Below, one piece after another: positions 55,109-63,858 of a stretch of DNA of 64,000 bases. A program made the position numbers and the translations under genes. Location: the sequence record PZ534534.1; one strand, written 5' to 3'. The notes beneath the pieces were generated by a model. It made no database searches and was not told the origin of the DNA. It saw nothing but the letters and a program-made list of their open reading frames with translations. Numbering within the stretch: position 1 is the stretch's first letter; each line of letters opens with the position of its first letter. The stretch comes from a phage.

Positions 55109-55146
55109 GGCAGGCCCGGTGATTGTCTCCCGGCCCCTGCTGCCCC
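55109..55146 (+). repeat. GC-rich motif, copy A
   Basis: Contains CCCGGTGATTGTCTCCC inside AT-rich surroundings. Confidence 0.5.
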
Positions 55147-55247
55147 GGCTTGTTATTATAGTATCACACAGGACAAAGAAGGCAAGGATTTTTTGCATAA
55201 ATTTTTAAATGATAATGATAACCGTTCTCATTTTATGAAGCGCCCAT

Positions 55248-55285
55248 CCCCGGTGGTTGTCTCCCCCGTCACCGGTGCCTGCCGT
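55248..55285 (+). repeat. GC-rich motif, copy B
   Basis: CCCCGGTGGTTGTCTCCCCCGTCACCGGTGCCTGCCGT; direct repeat of copy A. Confidence 0.5.
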
Positions 55286-55437
55286 CCTTTCGATAGGTAT
55301 ATTATGCCGCCTGGCGGGGCCGCTGTCAACACTTTTCAAAAAATTTTTCTAACCTGATGCGCTAACCGTTGCAACCTGGCGGGGCCAGCCTGGCAGGTCC
55401 GCACTATAAAGTAAACAGCTACAGAAGAGGTACAAAA

Positions 55438-55614
55438 ATGAAAGGTAATGCTACTCGCCTGGGAAATGTAGTGATTAATGATACGGAAGCTATCGCCCTG
55501 GTTGAAAAGGTTATGGCGGGAGCGTTGGAACATAAAGAAGAGTACGAAAAAAAATGGTGGTTAACCTGGCGGGGGGCGGCAGGTGGATTCTATCATAAAA
55601 ATAATTTAAAATAG
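55438..55614 (+). CDS. small hypothetical protein
   Basis: ATG 55438 after AGAAGAGG; 58 aa; preceded by TATAAAGTAAAC box. Confidence 0.4.
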   Translation: MKGNATRLGNVVINDTEAIALVEKVMAGALEHKEEYEKKWWLTWRGAAGGFYHKNNLK

Positions 55615-55617
55615 TCG

Positions 55618-55645
55618 TTGACAACAAGGTTAATCATGGTATTAT
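55618..55645 (+). promoter_or_regulatory. sigma70-like promoter
   Basis: TTGACA-N16-TATTAT. Confidence 0.5.
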
Positions 55646-55695
55646 TACCCTACAAGGTGAACAACACCGCACTAACCAGTAAAGAGGATAAATTT

Positions 55696-55893
55696 ATGAA
55701 CGCATACGGGATCAAAGTACGTCGCAACACTCGCCAGGTGGTCACCAATCAAGTGATTTGCCGGGTGGATGTAACCATTAACAACGGGCAAGGCCTTTAT
55801 AAATTTCGTCGCGGTCATAGCTATACCCTGCAACAGCTTGATCGTTGCGCCCTGACAAAAGGACAGATCAACCACTGGTTTAATAAAAAATAA
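55696..55893 (+). CDS. small basic hypothetical protein
   Basis: ATG 55696 after AAAGAGGA; 65 aa. Confidence 0.4.
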   Translation: MNAYGIKVRRNTRQVVTNQVICRVDVTINNGQGLYKFRRGHSYTLQQLDRCALTKGQINHWFNKK

Positions 55894-55896
55894 GTA

Positions 55897-55925
55897 TTGA
55901 CATATAGTCCGACACCAAATACACT
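55897..55925 (+). promoter_or_regulatory. sigma70-like promoter
   Basis: TTGACA-N17-TACACT. Confidence 0.45.
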
Positions 55926-55957
55926 AAAAGCACAAAAGACACTAAGAGGATAAAATC

Positions 55958-56356
55958 ATGAAAACCACTACCTTTAATTTTGATAATGCGGACTTTTCTT
56001 TTTCTGATGTCAAGAACTGCCGCCGTGATCGTGGATTTTACAAGGCTTATAATCTGGTGGGCCTGGACGATGACAATAATTTGCACGAAGTAGCTGAGAT
56101 CCGGTATTATGCCGCCGCCAGCGGGAACACTCACTACTGCGTGTTTTGGATTCACGACAACAAGAACAATAAGTACGGTTATACTGGCGGCAAGGCGAGC
56201 GGTCACGGTTACGATAAAGCTAACGCAGCACTTGAGGGCGCATTAAATGCTATGGGGATCACTGCCGACGGCTGGATCTACGAAGAAGAGTTTTTGTCGG
56301 CACTTGCTGACCACCTGGGCTATAAAAAACACATTGTAACATGTGCCCACGAATAA
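55958..56356 (+). CDS. hypothetical protein
   Basis: 132 aa ORF with AGAGGA RBS. Confidence 0.45.
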   Translation: MKTTTFNFDNADFSFSDVKNCRRDRGFYKAYNLVGLDDDNNLHEVAEIRYYAAASGNTHYCVFWIHDNKNNKYGYTGGKASGHGYDKANAALEGALNAMGITADGWIYEEEFLSALADHLGYKKHIVTCAHE

Positions 56357-56363
56357 AAAATTA

Positions 56364-56391
56364 TTGACACGCTGCAAAATTCAAGTAAACT
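56364..56391 (+). promoter_or_regulatory. sigma70-like promoter
   Basis: TTGACA-N16-TAAACT. Confidence 0.4.
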
Positions 56392-56440
56392 ATACACAAA
56401 AGGCGGGAATGTTTCCCGCCAACACAAAGGAAAAAAGATC

Positions 56441-56836
56441 ATGAATAAGAACGTACGCCGCATCATGAACGAACTGGCAAACGATGAAAAAATTATTGAT
56501 ATGCATTTGGTCAACATTTGCCACCGTTGTGTAACATACAACAACCGCGCCGCGAAAGCGCGTGAGATGAACGCAAAAGGCACCTTAAAGCCCTTTCAGG
56601 TGGTTGTAAAATCTATAACTAGCGCAGCAGGCCAGGCGCATGACCACAACAACGAGAGCGCTAATATTGATCCGTCTTACGTAATGAAACGGATCCGGAC
56701 TTGCAAGAATAAAGAGCAGGTGTATAACGTCATAGATTGGCTGGACTCCCTGGGCGATGTGGTTTACAATAGGTTTTCTGCAGCTATTGAGATTCAGTTA
56801 GACAGGTTGGACGGGAAAGTACTGAAAACTTACTGA
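56441..56836 (+). CDS. hypothetical protein
   Basis: 131 aa ORF with AAAGGAAAA RBS. Confidence 0.45.
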   Translation: MNKNVRRIMNELANDEKIIDMHLVNICHRCVTYNNRAAKAREMNAKGTLKPFQVVVKSITSAAGQAHDHNNESANIDPSYVMKRIRTCKNKEQVYNVIDWLDSLGDVVYNRFSAAIEIQLDRLDGKVLKTY

Positions 56837-56837
56837 G

Positions 56838-56883
56838 TTTATTTTTAGATGGCCTTGACTCCAGGGCCATCAATAAAGTAAAC
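56838..56883 (+). promoter_or_regulatory. conserved hairpin plus TAAAGT element, copy 1
   Basis: GATGGCC(56848-54)/GGCCATC(56865-71) stem, loop TTGACTCCAG, then 13 bp to TAAAGT (56874-79); gene starts at 56917. Confidence 0.5.
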
Positions 56884-56916
56884 TAACCACAGTTGAGCGG
56901 AAAGGGGGGCTTAAAG

Positions 56917-62130: not shown

Positions 62131-62250
62131 ATGATGGAACAAATTAAACGCACCGAGGCTATTAATGGCAACGTGATCTATTTTGTCAGCAATAACGAAA
62201 AAGGCGTACCCTATGCGGCGGTAATAGTACAACCTGACGGCGATTATTAG
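62131..62250 (+). CDS. small hypothetical protein
   Basis: ATG 62131 after AGAGAGG; 39 aa. Confidence 0.3.
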   Translation: MMEQIKRTEAINGNVIYFVSNNEKGVPYAAVIVQPDGDY

Positions 62251-62360
62251 TTTACTGTGTACGGCGCTTATTCTTTTGGGCGTCCGGTGCATGATAGAAT
62301 TTTGAAAGTAGCGAACCCTACCGGGAAAAATATCACAGCAGAAAAATTTTTTGAAAATAG

Positions 62361-62388
62361 TTGACATGACCATATAAGACTGTAGTAT
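62361..62388 (+). promoter_or_regulatory. sigma70-like promoter
   Basis: TTGACA-N16-TAGTAT. Confidence 0.45.
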
Positions 62389-62435
62389 ATAAATCAAAGG
62401 GGCAAGCCCCACCAACCACAAAGAGGATAAAAATC

Positions 62436-62615
62436 ATGGCTATTATTGCAAAGACTGAGATCGTAGGCTTGGATTCTATTCTCCTCGCATATGAGGAAGC
62501 TATAGAAATGTATGTGGTTTCCTATGGTGAGTATATCCGTGAATATAAATCTATTGATCTGGCTTTTGAATGTTATATTCGCCAGGTTAATAAAGCGTAC
62601 GATGATTATCGTTAA
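62436..62615 (+). CDS. small hypothetical protein
   Basis: 59-aa ORF below track cutoff; AAGAGGATAA RBS. Confidence 0.35.
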   Translation: MAIIAKTEIVGLDSILLAYEEAIEMYVVSYGEYIREYKSIDLAFECYIRQVNKAYDDYR

Positions 62616-62705
62616 AATAGTTTGAAAACAAACAACCATCTTACAAAGCATAATACATAAGGCGGTGGAATGGTCCGCCACCTGGAACAAGAAGAGGAAA
62701 ACAAG

Positions 62706-62810
62706 ATGAAACAGAAATTAATTGATGCGGTGATCCTAGCTATTGCCCTGGGTATTGGCCTGATTGCAACCATGTCTAATATGATCTTGTCTTCCAACGG
62801 TATCGGGTGA
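62706..62810 (+). CDS. small membrane peptide
   Basis: 34-aa hydrophobic ORF (LIDAVILAIALGIGLIATM) after GAAGAGGAAA RBS. Confidence 0.3.
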   Translation: MKQKLIDAVILAIALGIGLIATMSNMILSSNGIG

Positions 62811-62819
62811 GGTTGGCAA

Positions 62820-63035
62820 ATGATCACTAACAAAACAGGCAAAACAGAATTTTTACGCAACTTACAGATCGGCAAGCCTGAGATCTGGTATTGCACTAAA
62901 ACACCACGTGACGAAATGAAAGACTTCACCGCCACGCTGCAACGGGTAAAGATATCCATCACGCAGAAAAAGGCCTTATTAGTGGTGGAAGGTGAGATCC
63001 CCCAAACCGTTGTTATAGTTGAGCGTACAGCATAG
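62820..63035 (+). CDS. hypothetical protein
   Basis: 71 aa ORF. Confidence 0.4.
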   Translation: MITNKTGKTEFLRNLQIGKPEIWYCTKTPRDEMKDFTATLQRVKISITQKKALLVVEGEIPQTVVIVERTA

Positions 63036-63126
63036 TTTAATTTATACCGATACCCGAAAATTAACCAACAAAGCATAAACAGGCGGTTACCGCCGCCTTA
63101 AACGTAGCAGAAAGAGGATAGACACA

Positions 63127-63411
63127 ATGAAAAAGATGATCGCAGTGGTTGCCCTAGTTGTTGGACTTAATGCGCCTGTAATGGCCAAAGAGCTGGCAAA
63201 AGAGGTTAATCTAACGGATATTCATGCCGTCAATCGAATCGGGGTTACTTATCGCTTATGCCTTGCCACTAAAACTTTTAAGGACGGCACAACAGAGTAC
63301 TACGGATTCGAGGGTGTCCGGTGCGGTGAGCTTGCTCGCGACCTTAAGGAAGATCCAGACCTGGAAGATCTGCCCATCACCGTAAACGGTAAAGCTTACG
63401 TAAACCGTTAA
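63127..63411 (+). CDS. secreted small protein
   Basis: N-terminal signal-peptide-like MKKMIAVVALVVGLNAPVMA; AAGAGGATAG RBS. Confidence 0.45.
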   Translation: MKKMIAVVALVVGLNAPVMAKELAKEVNLTDIHAVNRIGVTYRLCLATKTFKDGTTEYYGFEGVRCGELARDLKEDPDLEDLPITVNGKAYVNR

Positions 63412-63413
63412 CC

Positions 63414-63548
63414 ATGAGAAAGATAATCATCACCTTGGGGATTGTGGTGGCAATATTGGCGCTCTTTCCCCTTATGGTTAGGTATGTGCTGATCGGTATT
63501 GTCCTGGTAGTCAGTGATCTATTGGAAACGGTTGGCACCTTGTTTTAA
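63414..63548 (+). CDS. small membrane peptide
   Basis: 44-aa hydrophobic ORF starting 3 nt after upstream stop. Confidence 0.3.
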   Translation: MRKIIITLGIVVAILALFPLMVRYVLIGIVLVVSDLLETVGTLF

Positions 63549-63560
63549 AGAGCGGTAAAA

Positions 63561-63752
63561 ATGAATATCGAACAAGTTAGAAAGGTATTGGCGGTACTGC
63601 GTTATCATAATCATAGAAAGGTTATAGACGATCCTGATTATGTTGATTCAAGTCTGGAAGGGGATACACTGCAAGCCATAAGCAACATGCAAGAATTGCT
63701 AAAGCGCATGACAGAGAAAAACCGACCGGACTACATAGGCGAAAAAATATAA
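63561..63752 (+). CDS. hypothetical protein
   Basis: 63 aa ORF. Confidence 0.4.
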   Translation: MNIEQVRKVLAVLRYHNHRKVIDDPDYVDSSLEGDTLQAISNMQELLKRMTEKNRPDYIGEKI

Positions 63753-63766
63753 TATTTATAAACTAC

Positions 63767-63796
63767 AAAACAGGGCTTGCAATGGTCCTGTTTTTT
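63767..63796 (+). terminator. rho-independent terminator
   Basis: CAGGG/TCCTG stem with 10-nt loop followed by TTTTTT. Confidence 0.5.
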
Positions 63797-63810
63797 GTTA
63801 TACTTGTTTC

Positions 63811-63858
63811 ACGGCAGGCACCTGGCGACAGGGGGAGACAATCACCGGGTGTGCCTGC
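63811..63858 (-). repeat. GC-rich motif, copy C (inverted)
   Basis: Reverse complement CCCGGTGATTGTCTCCCCCTGTCGCCAGGTGCCTGCCGT matches copies A and B. Confidence 0.5.

Follow-up and report, generated by a model that had tools for sequence, protein, structure and literature searches.

Short cis elements that act on RNA polymerase after a few specific promoters are familiar from lambdoid phages, where HK022 put, λ nut and the Q-binding elements are examples. Transcript-primed origins of replication form another group, which includes T4 oriF and oriG, ColE1 and the primary origin of T7, with its tandem promoters and AT-rich segment. Closer to the phage considered here, an early promoter consensus, AAAA-N3-TGTTGAC-N19-TATAAT, has been described for Certrevirus (PMC7344957), and φTE, an rV5-like phage of that genus, makes the non-coding RNA pseudo-ToxI (Blower et al. 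2012, PMC3475682).

Here we describe a motif that occurs three times in a 64,000-nt stretch of DNA (PZ534534.1; hereafter the window) from a Vequintavirus, an rV5-like coliphage that shares 99% identity with phage naswa. Judged by its sequence, the motif is the conserved core of a previously undescribed non-coding module, made up of a host-type promoter, a GC-rich transcript start and palindromes of the Fur-repressor type, and common to several genera of virulent enterobacterial phages.

Results

An earlier note on this DNA had reported a GC-rich motif in three copies, two direct and one inverted, and these are real. On the plus strand, sequence reading and pattern search find copy A (55116-55131) as CCGGTGATTGTCTCCC, exact, and copy B (55250-55265) as CCGGTGGTTGTCTCCC, with one mismatch; copy C (63833-63848), when written in the orientation of the note, matches the 16-mer exactly and lies on the minus strand. 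The best reading is that of the opposite strand, GGGAGACAATCACCGG, which is found at copy A on the minus strand, its predicted transcribed strand, and at copy C on the plus strand; copy B has GGGAGACAACCACCGG on the minus strand. The chance expectation from shuffles is 0.42 matches at up to three mismatches and, by our own arithmetic, about 0.002 matches at zero or one mismatch per 128 kb of two-strand sequence. Neither the window nor the rest of the near-identical naswa genome holds a fourth copy, all other matches having at least four mismatches, and a profile search of the genome finds none beyond the three. A repeat search extends the inverted similarity to 37 nt at 78% between B and C (55231-55267 and 63831-63867), in agreement with the "about 39 bp" first estimated, and to 29 nt at 86% between A and C (55103-55131 and 63833-63861). 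The copies also stand out, as had been claimed, from AT-rich non-coding DNA: 50-nt bins contain 30-36% A+T at the motif and 58-74% in the surroundings.

A search of related phages, suggested in the earlier note, finds the motif at equivalent genome positions in Vequintavirus, Certrevirus, Seunavirus, Mydovirus and Phapecoctavirus. We collected 29 copies from these five genera and used them for the promoter counts. The same module is present in CR3, POP17, F1M1E, SalP219, 4MG, Seu621 and ESCO13. The invariant alignment columns are GGTG and TT plus C-N2-GCA; the variable parts are the spacer of 20-odd nt from the -10 to the motif and the 5-6 nt that separate the motif from a second conserved box. 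In Aeromonas phage 2L372D the promoter, box and palindromes are retained and the 13-mer is not. Scattering across unrelated genomes, which the earlier note would have held against its interpretation, does occur to the letter (more than 100 matches in IMG/VR), and all of these are one chance match in a prophage capsid gene.

The motif had been described as unlike σ70 promoters; in fact each copy lies directly 3' of one, on the strand opposite to that first read. A σ70-type promoter of the form TTGnnn-16/18-TAnnnT stands on the motif (bottom) strand in 29 of 29 copies, a figure that does not amount to 29 independent events since the copies are homologous. These promoters score 9.0/12 on average, frequently with an extended -10 TG, and the end of the -10 hexamer lies 26-30 nt from the motif in all but two copies (27/29). 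At exactly that distance from random anchors, a promoter of at least 7/12 is found at 8-9% of positions and one of at least 9/12 at less than 1%. Shared descent could partly explain the fixed distance; the sequence between promoter and motif has nonetheless diverged fully between genera.

P_A (55158-55185, minus strand) combines a -35 TTGCCT (55185-55180), a 16-nt spacer and a TG-extended -10 TACTAT (55163-55158), with a second -10, TATAAT, overlapping at 55160-55155. Its predicted start is near 55151; it points leftward, opposing the flanking genes, and is conserved in the copies of Gotham, L126 and EPFV3. P_B (55301-55329, minus strand; TTGACA-17-CATAAT, 11/12) likewise points leftward, from a predicted start near 55294, and is preceded at 55330-55350 by the phage's standard A/T-rich UP-like element; its UP/-35 segment is 93% complementary to a plus-strand early promoter at 62340-62366, and the region has a weak BLAST match to RB49. 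P_C (63777-63804, plus strand; TTGCAA-16-TATACT, extended -10 TG) runs rightward with the genes from a predicted start near 63811, its -35 being carried in the loop of the upstream gene's intrinsic terminator (63767-63794, plus strand). Beyond copy C lies a second, gene-proximal promoter (63881-63909, plus strand; TTGACA-17-TAGCAT) for the gene starting at 63966. An independent consensus scanner reports both P_B (11/12) and P_C (9/12 plus TG). A and B would seem to be tandem orphan promoters, directed against all neighbouring genes in a 0.7-kb non-coding gap, and C a promoter that runs with the genes.

The gap with copies A and B (54744-55437) has a counterpart of 1.0-1.3 kb in CR3, Seu621, ESCO13, SalP219, 4MG and Aeromonas phage 2L372D. 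Three direct repeats of about 65 nt each occupy its left part (54775-54960), and repeats of the same type (TCTCGATCGA...) are found in the corresponding position in those genera that were inspected. Its minus-strand ORFs are unrelated between genera, the ORF spanning A and B is broken in L126, and we found no conserved ORF and no host homologue.

Downstream of the motif lies the second conserved box, TGCCYGYTAT, usually followed by one to four palindromes. The box reads TGCCCGTTATTC at copy A (55101-55112, minus strand) and TGCCTGCTATAT at copy C (63852-63863, plus strand), and is diverged at copy B (55235-55246, minus strand; TGGGCGCTTCAT). A Fur-box-type palindrome, TTGAATGATAATTATTCTCGT, adjoins copy A (55075-55095); its 15-mer TGATAATTATTCTCG has two mismatches to the 7-1-7 Fur box. 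A split or degenerate element of the same type, AATGATAATGATAACCGTTCTCATTT, adjoins copy B (55208-55233) and is the window's best Fur-19 match (three mismatches, at 55211). When the whole window is scanned, the top Fur-19 matches are those adjoining copies A and B; no palindromes stand beside copy C in the window. With two to five mismatches, the window's palindromes are weaker than those of its relatives. The core of the 4MG palindrome, ATGATAATCATTATCA, is identical to the palindrome that λ has in its cos region and K-12 in Qin, there 232-249 nt upstream of nohA; this is the position of a 22.3-bit Fur site confirmed by gel shift (Chen et al. 2007, PMC2189734). The palindromes look to be of Fur type, and their ligand could be a protein other than Fur. 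Fur boxes 3' of a start site do not have the classical geometry of repression, which counts against the role for Fur proposed below.

Discussion

We propose, with a probability of roughly 45%, that a promoter-proximal cis-element, of which the motif, as GGAGACAAnCACC, is the invariant core, belongs to three early transcription units of σ70 type, served by host RNA polymerase and in two cases non-coding. Given a -10 that ends 26-30 nt upstream, the motif would sit at about +20 to +35 of the transcript. The second box would follow at about +38 to +50 and then, in most copies, one to four AT-rich Fur-box-type palindromes. E. coli RNA polymerase would start near 55151 (-), 55294 (-) and 63811 (+); A and B would make leftward non-coding RNAs in the control gap, antisense to the upstream genes, and from C would come a long leader of the gene at 63966, a gene that has its own proximal promoter as well. 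One could envision that the two boxes are read by sequence, not fold, by a putative conserved factor of the phage or of enterobacteria, which would act near the promoter, on DNA or nascent RNA, and set the amount or reach of transcription from the three promoters. Host Fur-Fe(II) on the palindromes just 3' might add an iron-dependent roadblock. What survives of the earlier interpretation is a non-random, regulatory-looking element kept in five genera, for which a regulator binding site is a live option; independence from σ70 promoters and an inversion site or cassette boundary do not survive.

The main rivals to this proposal are a purely DNA-level operator and an R-loop-type origin. The operator, which we consider unlikely, would have a phage early protein (shut-off) or a Q-like RNA polymerase-modifying factor attach to the boxes C-N2-GCA and GGTGnTTGTCTCC at just three promoters, the transcripts themselves being functionless. 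It fits a primary sequence that is conserved without structure: mean folding z is -0.6 on the top and -0.9 on the bottom strand, the RNAalifold consensus contains 0 and 3 pairs, respectively, an Rfam search matched no family, and no family-wide hairpin, secondary structure or covariation is found among the copies. The fixed spacing to the promoter, the bipartite, non-palindromic boxes a variable 5-6 nt apart and the co-occurrence with another element of protein-binding type, the palindromes, point the same way. However, a candidate DNA-binding protein is missing, the 20 neighbouring ORFs having no above-threshold Pfam domain, and the operator overlaps heavily with the cis-element, differing only in whether DNA or RNA is the molecule recognised.

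It also seems rather unlikely that A and B are the orphan promoters of one or more R-loop-type origins, firing into an AT-rich region with repeats and palindromes. A G-rich RNA start would then stay on its C-rich template and prime or activate replication, the motif marking the hybrid or a processing site. The early/replication arm has its largest non-coding gap here, about 8 kb past the DNA polymerase gene, and the tandem promoters in that gap do face away from every gene; the three repeats and the palindromes lie just 3' of them. A GC skew of +0.22 in the flank (positive in 24 of 26) marks the predicted transcripts as G-rich, and what follows them is 66% A+T; in the Aeromonas phage, purines make up 71% of the counterpart, which contains GGGUAGGGUGGUGG and an (AG)n run. 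Moreover, the rV5 authors were unable to place the origin of that phage by skew (PMC3606486). On the other hand, in this genome neither repeats nor palindromes follow copy C, the window's own copies have a modest G skew (core values of +0.12 to +0.24), there is no enrichment of GATC sites, cumulative GC skew makes no turn at 54-55 kb and no initiator gene is linked to the A/B region. To our knowledge, none of the T4, T7 and ColE1 origins features an invariant 13-mer.

Transcription of the other strand deserves less credit. The A-type copies of Vequintavirus and Certrevirus carry a moderate top-strand promoter, TTGAAT-18-CAGAAT (8/12), whose -35 and spacer are overlapped by the Fur box in classical fashion, so that convergent transcription is possible. 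Quite improbably, this Fur-repressed promoter would start an iron-responsive phage sRNA with the 5' end CCGGUGAUUGUCUCC and an anti-Shine-Dalgarno-like UCUCC / GGUGAU seed, copy C being ended by a bidirectional terminator. Copy C on the minus strand indeed runs into a hairpin and U-run, and some stems (winC, POP_1) tolerate G.U on the top-strand reading only; yet the best top-strand candidates average 5.7/12, none qualifying in five copies, against the 29/29 of the bottom strand, their -10 is not kept among close relatives in B and C, and the hairpin that follows the inverted copy in Certrevirus lacks a U-run in the orientation required.

The suggestion of the earlier note that the motif is a recombination or inversion site or an acquired-cassette boundary, at which a site-specific recombinase would invert or excise the 8.6-kb B-C block, is already largely refuted and very improbable: A/B and C are inverted and flank small accessory-type genes of slightly varying content (8.7 kb here, 9.6 kb in naswa), but the regions are collinear, with order and orientation unchanged, in the nine related genomes examined, the forward-plus-inverted layout, about 7-11 kb apart, is itself kept across Certrevirus, Phapecoctavirus, Mydovirus and Seunavirus, Klebsiella phage Seu621 and 4MG have a further copy in direct orientation, and the 20 intervening ORFs include no recombinase domain.

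There is scarcely any likelihood that the motif is a relative of a known element, whether an antitoxin RNA mimic of the ToxI type, a packaging signal like cosQ, or an sRNA or hairpin of conserved structure. The pseudo-ToxI repeat matches the motif at 11 of 14 positions, but has no similarity past these 14 nt; the λ right end has the identical palindrome and then ACGGG...CCGGTGAT, an order also seen in copy A, but the motif-core profile misses that end (the best λ match is unrelated, E 0.8), and none of the copies is at a genome terminus, the 459-bp repeat of Gotham being about 2 kb away from C and 11 kb away from A; Vequintavirus copy C folds well (z -2.5 to -3.9), but the family as a whole does not share a structure.

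Among described systems, the σ70 early promoters of large virulent coliphages, including the 'PeSL' (promoter-early stem-loops) cassettes of T4-type phages such as RB49, have the same near-consensus hexamers, extended -10 TG and A/T-rich UP-like segment, and copy C resembles PeSL-type promoter/terminator cassettes in having its -35 in the loop of the preceding terminator. Those promoters drive genes, whereas P_A and P_B are orphans that run antisense to the whole gene block; and, compared with the ordinary early promoters of the same phage, the three motif promoters alone carry the invariant 13-mer and second box in the initial transcribed region. The palindromes agree with the 7-1-7 and 19-bp Fur consensus, as do the Fur boxes upstream of nohA/nohD in λ-type cos regions, and they form arrays as the sites of Chen et al. 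form clusters; however, they sit in a virulent phage, 3' of a strong promoter and not over it, and those of the window are more degenerate. φTE pseudo-ToxI is also a non-coding element of an rV5-like phage and has the string GGTGATT..CT.CC in common with the motif, but it lies at another locus (beside tRNA genes and terminase), consists of 36-nt tandem repeats and is otherwise dissimilar. Compared by sequence features, the transcript-primed origins (T4 oriF/oriG, T7 primary, ColE1) likewise place one or more promoters, an easily unwound AT-rich segment and a G-rich RNA in non-coding DNA near replication genes, whereas the phage module has its invariant 13-mer and no skew or GATC signature. Lambdoid put and nut have no sequence similarity to the motif, put and nut boxB need stem-loops, of which none is conserved here, and two of the three promoters have no downstream genes to antiterminate into. 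In its manner of working, however, the module may be analogous to put, nut and the Q elements, which likewise lie within the first ~30-70 nt of the transcript, in few copies per genome and in opposite orientations.

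Occurrence of the motif in rV5-like phages and their relatives

A pattern search placed the GC-rich 16-mer, without mismatch, at 55116-55131 (copy A, + strand) and, with one mismatch, at 55250-55265 (copy B, + strand); the third occurrence, copy C, lies on the - strand at 63833-63848. A repeat search of the window also recovered the extended B/C and A/C similarities, and the earlier note's observation of two direct copies and one inverted copy is thus borne out, far beyond chance. At up to three mismatches, neither the window nor the remainder of the genome of Escherichia phage naswa contains a further copy, and a profile search of the same sequences gave no fourth copy. 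In megablast, the stretch 54500-56500 matched 118 phage records, the closest being Escherichia phages naswa, EmilHeitz and magaca (99.2%), all of them Vequintavirus/rV5-like. Its counterpart in naswa lies within a long plus-strand gene block, where the DNA primase/helicase and DNA polymerase genes are followed by about 50 small hypothetical genes and then by a 2.5-kb non-coding region; past this region the genes are on the other strand. The Gotham record has an annotated 459-bp repeat region (record positions 1-459) in the corresponding non-coding record end. In PLSDB, the 137,565-bp "E. coli plasmid" CP057073.1 is 95% identical to the region over the full query and evidently represents a misfiled Vequintavirus genome.

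When the non-coding stretches alone served as the query in a sensitive BLAST search for relatives, partial matches appeared in Klebsiella, Salmonella, Cronobacter, Pectobacterium, Enterobacter and phAPEC8-like phages; in GenBank the relatives number roughly 220. We compared the regions of CR3, POP17 and F1M1E (Certrevirus), SalP219 and 4MG (Seunavirus), Seu621 (Mydovirus), ESCO13 (Phapecoctavirus, a different subfamily), EPFV3 (a 90%-identical Vequintavirus) and Aeromonas phage 2L372D (Plateaulakevirus). The Certrevirus, Mydovirus and Phapecoctavirus phages and 4MG each carry one gene-oriented copy within a 1.0-1.3-kb non-coding gap and an inverted copy 7-11 kb downstream of it. In Seu621 and 4MG the terminal non-coding region holds a further copy, in direct orientation, and the inverted copy has diverged (GGAGGAAAGTCACC); in SalP219 the gap copy is the only one found. 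Vequintavirus differs, its gap holding two tandem copies, A and B. Phage 2L372D has kept the surrounding architecture but not the 13-mer at the core of the motif. Its counterpart (L140 12990-13140) has the promoter, box and palindrome layout described below, with the GC-rich core replaced by a 110-nt, 71%-purine segment that carries an (AG)n run and GGGTAGGGTGGTGG on the transcribed strand.

A scan of IMG/VR with CCGGTGRTTGTCTCCC matched more than 120 contigs. Nearly all of these proved to be a single in-frame chance match in a conserved prophage major-capsid gene (GLPVIVSQYVG; 53-60% GC), and a handful of others were unrelated singletons, in number near the estimated chance expectation; the only true relatives were the AT-rich contigs L046, L059/L126, L067, L094 and L109. 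The capsid gene, from a very common enterobacterial prophage family (loci L005-L124), contains the exact 16-mer in frame (GLPVIVSQ; for example, L005 8083-8098), and the predicted phage RNA would be perfectly complementary over 16 nt to the prophage capsid mRNA. We judge this match to be due to chance, as one of about 10 independent matches.

Promoters and conserved sequence

Twenty-nine copies were anchored on GGTG and sigma70 promoters were scored on both strands. On the bottom strand, opposite to the orientation in which the motif had first been written, all 29 are accompanied by a TTGACA-like -35 and a TATAAT-like (A2/T6) -10 spaced 16-18 bp apart (TTGnnn-16/18-TAnnnT; mean score 9.0/12), often with an extended -10 TG. 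The description of the motif as unlike the sigma70 promoters, made from the other strand, therefore does not hold. The end of the -10 lies 26-30 nt upstream of GGAGAC in 27/29 copies, 36 nt in the B copies and 22 nt in L094. On the top strand the best candidates average 5.7/12 and five copies have no qualifying one. At random anchors in the window, a promoter scoring at least 7/12 falls at the exact distance in 8-9% of cases, and one scoring at least 9/12 in less than 1%. An independent generic scanner also flagged the predicted promoters of copies B (P_B, TTGACA-17-CATAAT, 11/12) and C (P_C, TTGCAA-16-TATACT plus TG). Because the bottom-strand promoters precede all copies and the top-strand ones are weak, the motif is best read as GGGAGACAATCACCGG, and is most sensibly taken as about +20 to +35 of predicted transcripts with starts near 55151 (-), 55294 (-) and 63811 (+). 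The predicted promoters of A and B point leftwards, against every neighboring gene; P_C points rightwards, to a gene at 63966 that has its own proximal promoter as well. P_B has the A/T-rich upstream segment typical of the phage's ordinary early promoters. Readings of the motif as a sigma54, sigma32 or ECF sigma-factor element, or as a DnaA, IHF or CRP site, gave no fit in a comparison by eye with the consensus sequences.

Several early promoters, among them P_B and the one to the right of copy C, have GC-rich spacers of the CCTGGCGGGGCC or CTGCCAGGTGGTGGGG type between -35 and -10 (55305-55321, 55370-55386, 60530-60546 and 63887-63903). In promoters that are otherwise AT-rich, such spacers seem out of the ordinary.

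Across the 29 aligned copies, GGTG, TT and a C are invariant, and C-N2-GCA lies 5-6 variable nt from the motif. Read on the transcribed strand, the conserved sequence is GGAGACAAnCACC-GG-N4-5-TGCCYGYTAT, its last element forming a second box. The approximately 20 nt from the -10 to the motif are kept in length but entirely different in sequence among genera. We found no conserved secondary structure with covariation: RNAalifold predicted 0 pairs for the top strand and a trivial 3-bp hairpin for the bottom one, and G.U versus A.C substitutions were contradictory, different stems favoring different strands. Mean folding z was -0.6 (top) and -0.9 (bottom). A hairpin or structured RNA was rejected, since individual folds on both strands were no better than shuffles except for Vequintavirus copy C, which alone stands out. 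Rfam 15 gave no match at the copies at E<=1, and none at the gathering score in CR3. Elsewhere in the window, a weak match to the Clostridium-PBP RNA at 59605-59676 (33.5 bits, where the gathering score is 94.4; E 0.21) is almost certainly due to chance.

No ORF accounts for the conservation of the motif, because the one at 55079-55357, annotated in some records, is interrupted in L126 and the annotated minus-strand ORFs of the gap are unrelated from genus to genus. A mini-ORF past the motif ("MPVILQMRMIIIQ...") has no start codon in several of the copies, and in SalP219 and ESCO13 stop codons interrupt it early; by eye, its apparent conservation is that of a palindrome read in frame. Host mimicry was also dismissed: the leader has no match in the E. 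coli chromosome, and its sole "plasmid" match is a Vequintavirus genome.

Fur-type palindromes

Gene-oriented copies have one to four AAATGAGAATCATTCTCATTT-like palindromes on their left. Since such palindromes also come after the inverted copies in Certrevirus and after the third copy in Seu621 and 4MG, they accompany the motif. When the window was compared with the Fur consensus (19-bp GATAATGATAATCATTATC, or 7-1-7 TGATAATnATTATCA), the best matches in the entire 64 kb adjoined A and B (3-5 mismatches of 19); the palindromes of the relatives reach 15-16 matching positions of 19. The core of the 4MG palindrome is identical to the validated nohA/lambda Fur site, and a BLAST search of 5,426 E. 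coli genomes with the 4MG array matched nothing but lambdoid-prophage cos regions, which lie upstream of nohD/DUF1441 terminase genes. Lambda and the K-12 Qin prophage both have ATGATAATCATTATCA, which lies 232-249 nt upstream of nohA. At this position Chen et al. (2007) reported a 22.3-bit Fur site, confirmed by gel shift, and the nohA region was among the fragments selected in vivo for Fur binding (PMC2189734). This match to a validated site identifies the palindromes as being of the Fur-operator type, and we infer that Fur would bind them in the phages. They begin about 55-60 nt downstream of the predicted bottom-strand starts and do not overlap the strong bottom-strand promoters. In lambda the same palindrome (48455-48470, L146) is about 30 bp from the right cohesive end, beside cosQ; in Qin the validated site (L147 2100-2117) lies within a cos region identical to that of lambda.

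Other elements of the region

The left part of the non-coding gap (54775-54960) holds three direct repeats, each about 65 nt long and 68-77% identical, and CR3, Seu621, SalP219 and 4MG have repeats of this type (TTCTCGATCGA...GAAAAAATTTT) at the corresponding location. Such repeats may be iterons or may be bound by a protein; GATC density is not raised. Between these repeats and the Fur-type palindromes lies a perfect 18-bp palindrome, TAATTAGCATGCTAATTA (55023-55040). Another GC-rich block (CTACCGGCGATCCACCTTCC...GTTAGCCCCGCCTTTTCGCCGTGGGGTGGCG), nearly invariant and preceded by TTGCAAGCGTCTTTACAnTTCTTTACAAA, is found in Certrevirus, Mydovirus, Seunavirus and Phapecoctavirus about 100 nt right of the gene-oriented copy (L133 20148-20250, L134 18410-18500, L135 10305-10400, L139 13165-13260 and L136 13160-13255). 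It is absent from the window, Vequintavirus having copy B at that position. The block can be folded (consensus -21 kcal/mol, without covariation) and may be an unannotated ncRNA; its short matches to prophage cos regions are neither collinear nor significant. Finally, repeated cassettes of 37-57 nt (TTTTTAGATGGCCTTGACTCCAGGGCCATCAATAAAGTAAACT) at 56838-56894, 57460-57516, 61177-61233 and 57796-57840 each consist of a hairpin whose loop carries a TTGACT -35 and, after it, a -10-like box. These terminator-plus-promoter modules between small early genes are reminiscent of the T4-type "PeSL" elements.

Discussion

The comparisons show, at the level of sequence, a conserved module composed of a sigma70-type promoter, a spacer that varies in sequence but not in length, the invariant 13-mer, the second box and palindromes of the Fur type, present in two to three copies per genome. 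Two of the window's copies are orphan and antisense. The reading that we favor, at slightly less than even odds (about 0.45), is that of three early transcription units served by the host RNA polymerase, whose promoter-proximal boxes would be recognized by sequence, on the DNA or on the nascent RNA, by a conserved factor, with Fur acting downstream as an iron-dependent roadblock.

Two main rivals have to be weighed against these early units. One could envision that the gap is a replication origin primed by a transcript. The tandem orphan promoters in the main non-coding gap, the G-rich start of the predicted transcript followed by 66% A+T, and the 71% purine content of the Aeromonas phage 2L372D counterpart are in its favor; GATC sites, however, are not enriched and GC skew shows no turn. 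In the other, the module would be an operator functioning purely at the DNA level. A top-strand sRNA repressed by Fur is less likely, because promoters on that strand are weak or absent in many copies; the palindrome overlaps a promoter only at a weak top-strand candidate, TTGAAT-18-CAGAAT, in the A-type copies. We consider it improbable that the module is an iron-gated non-coding control unit of rV5-like and phAPEC8-like phages. Host Fur on the phage Fur boxes would then set read-through from the orphan early promoters, across a conserved leader, into the gap, so that the iron status of the host would switch an early step (replication priming or activation, or silencing of the upstream operon by antisense RNA). 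On replicating phage DNA, the Fur-box arrays might in addition titrate Fur away, with derepression of the iron regulon of the host. As for the inversion or recombination site, or cassette boundary, raised in the earlier note, A/B and C do lie as flanking inverted repeats 8.6 kb apart, but we regard this reading as essentially refuted by the collinearity of relatives, the forward-plus-inverted layout kept across genera and the lack of a recombinase. Nine relatives (WalterGehring, pangalan, A140, 241Ecol014PP, EduardKellenberger, typing phage 14, naam, D# and C15) have the copies in the same order and on the same strands, with none in the alternative orientation. Neither a recombinase nor any above-threshold Pfam domain was found in the 20 ORFs between the copies, and the naswa and Gotham annotations list only hypothetical proteins there.

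We found no description of the motif, the orphan promoters or the Fur-type palindromes in the literature searched. Full-text searches returned nothing on Fur boxes, transcripts or sRNAs in the rV5-like group, nor did a literature search yield transcriptome or 5'-end data for it. The rV5 genome paper drew a "non-coding" box, confined its promoter search to the regions upstream of genes and could find no origin from skew (PMC3606486), and that on Certrevirus CB7 gave only a generic early promoter consensus (PMC7344957). The box now contains a conserved, testable module with three predicted starts, a 13-mer, a second box and Fur-type palindromes. The Vequintavirinae and Stephanstirmvirinae include widely used therapeutic and typing phages (rV5, relatives of PVP-SE1 and phAPEC8, members of the BASEL collection). 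Should the orphan promoters and the link to Fur prove real, these would be a rare case of strictly lytic phages wiring a host metal-sensing repressor into their early control region, and the module would provide a handle on replication start sites or the timing of early transcription in them; if not, the module would be an ordinary family-specific promoter-leader repeat.

Mimicry of ToxI was rejected, as the motif shares only 11/14 nt with the pseudo-ToxI of phage phiTE; the latter consists of tandem repeats of about 36 nt at another locus, whereas here single copies are 134 nt and 8.6 kb apart. By eye, the right end of lambda resembles copy A past the palindrome (ACGGG...CCGGTGAT, in the same order), yet a profile of the motif core does not recover that end, and the lambda cos region and the module share the palindrome alone. 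The copies are not at genome ends or by the terminase, as cos sites would be: in Gotham, some 2 kb separate the terminal repeat from C and some 11 kb separate it from A, and the naswa terminase genes are about 80 kb away. The papers examined do not take up a role for Fur, or any other protein, at lambdoid cos sites. In kind, we rate the module as a promoter-associated cis-regulatory one, of higher interest should the Fur/iron link or an origin function be confirmed.
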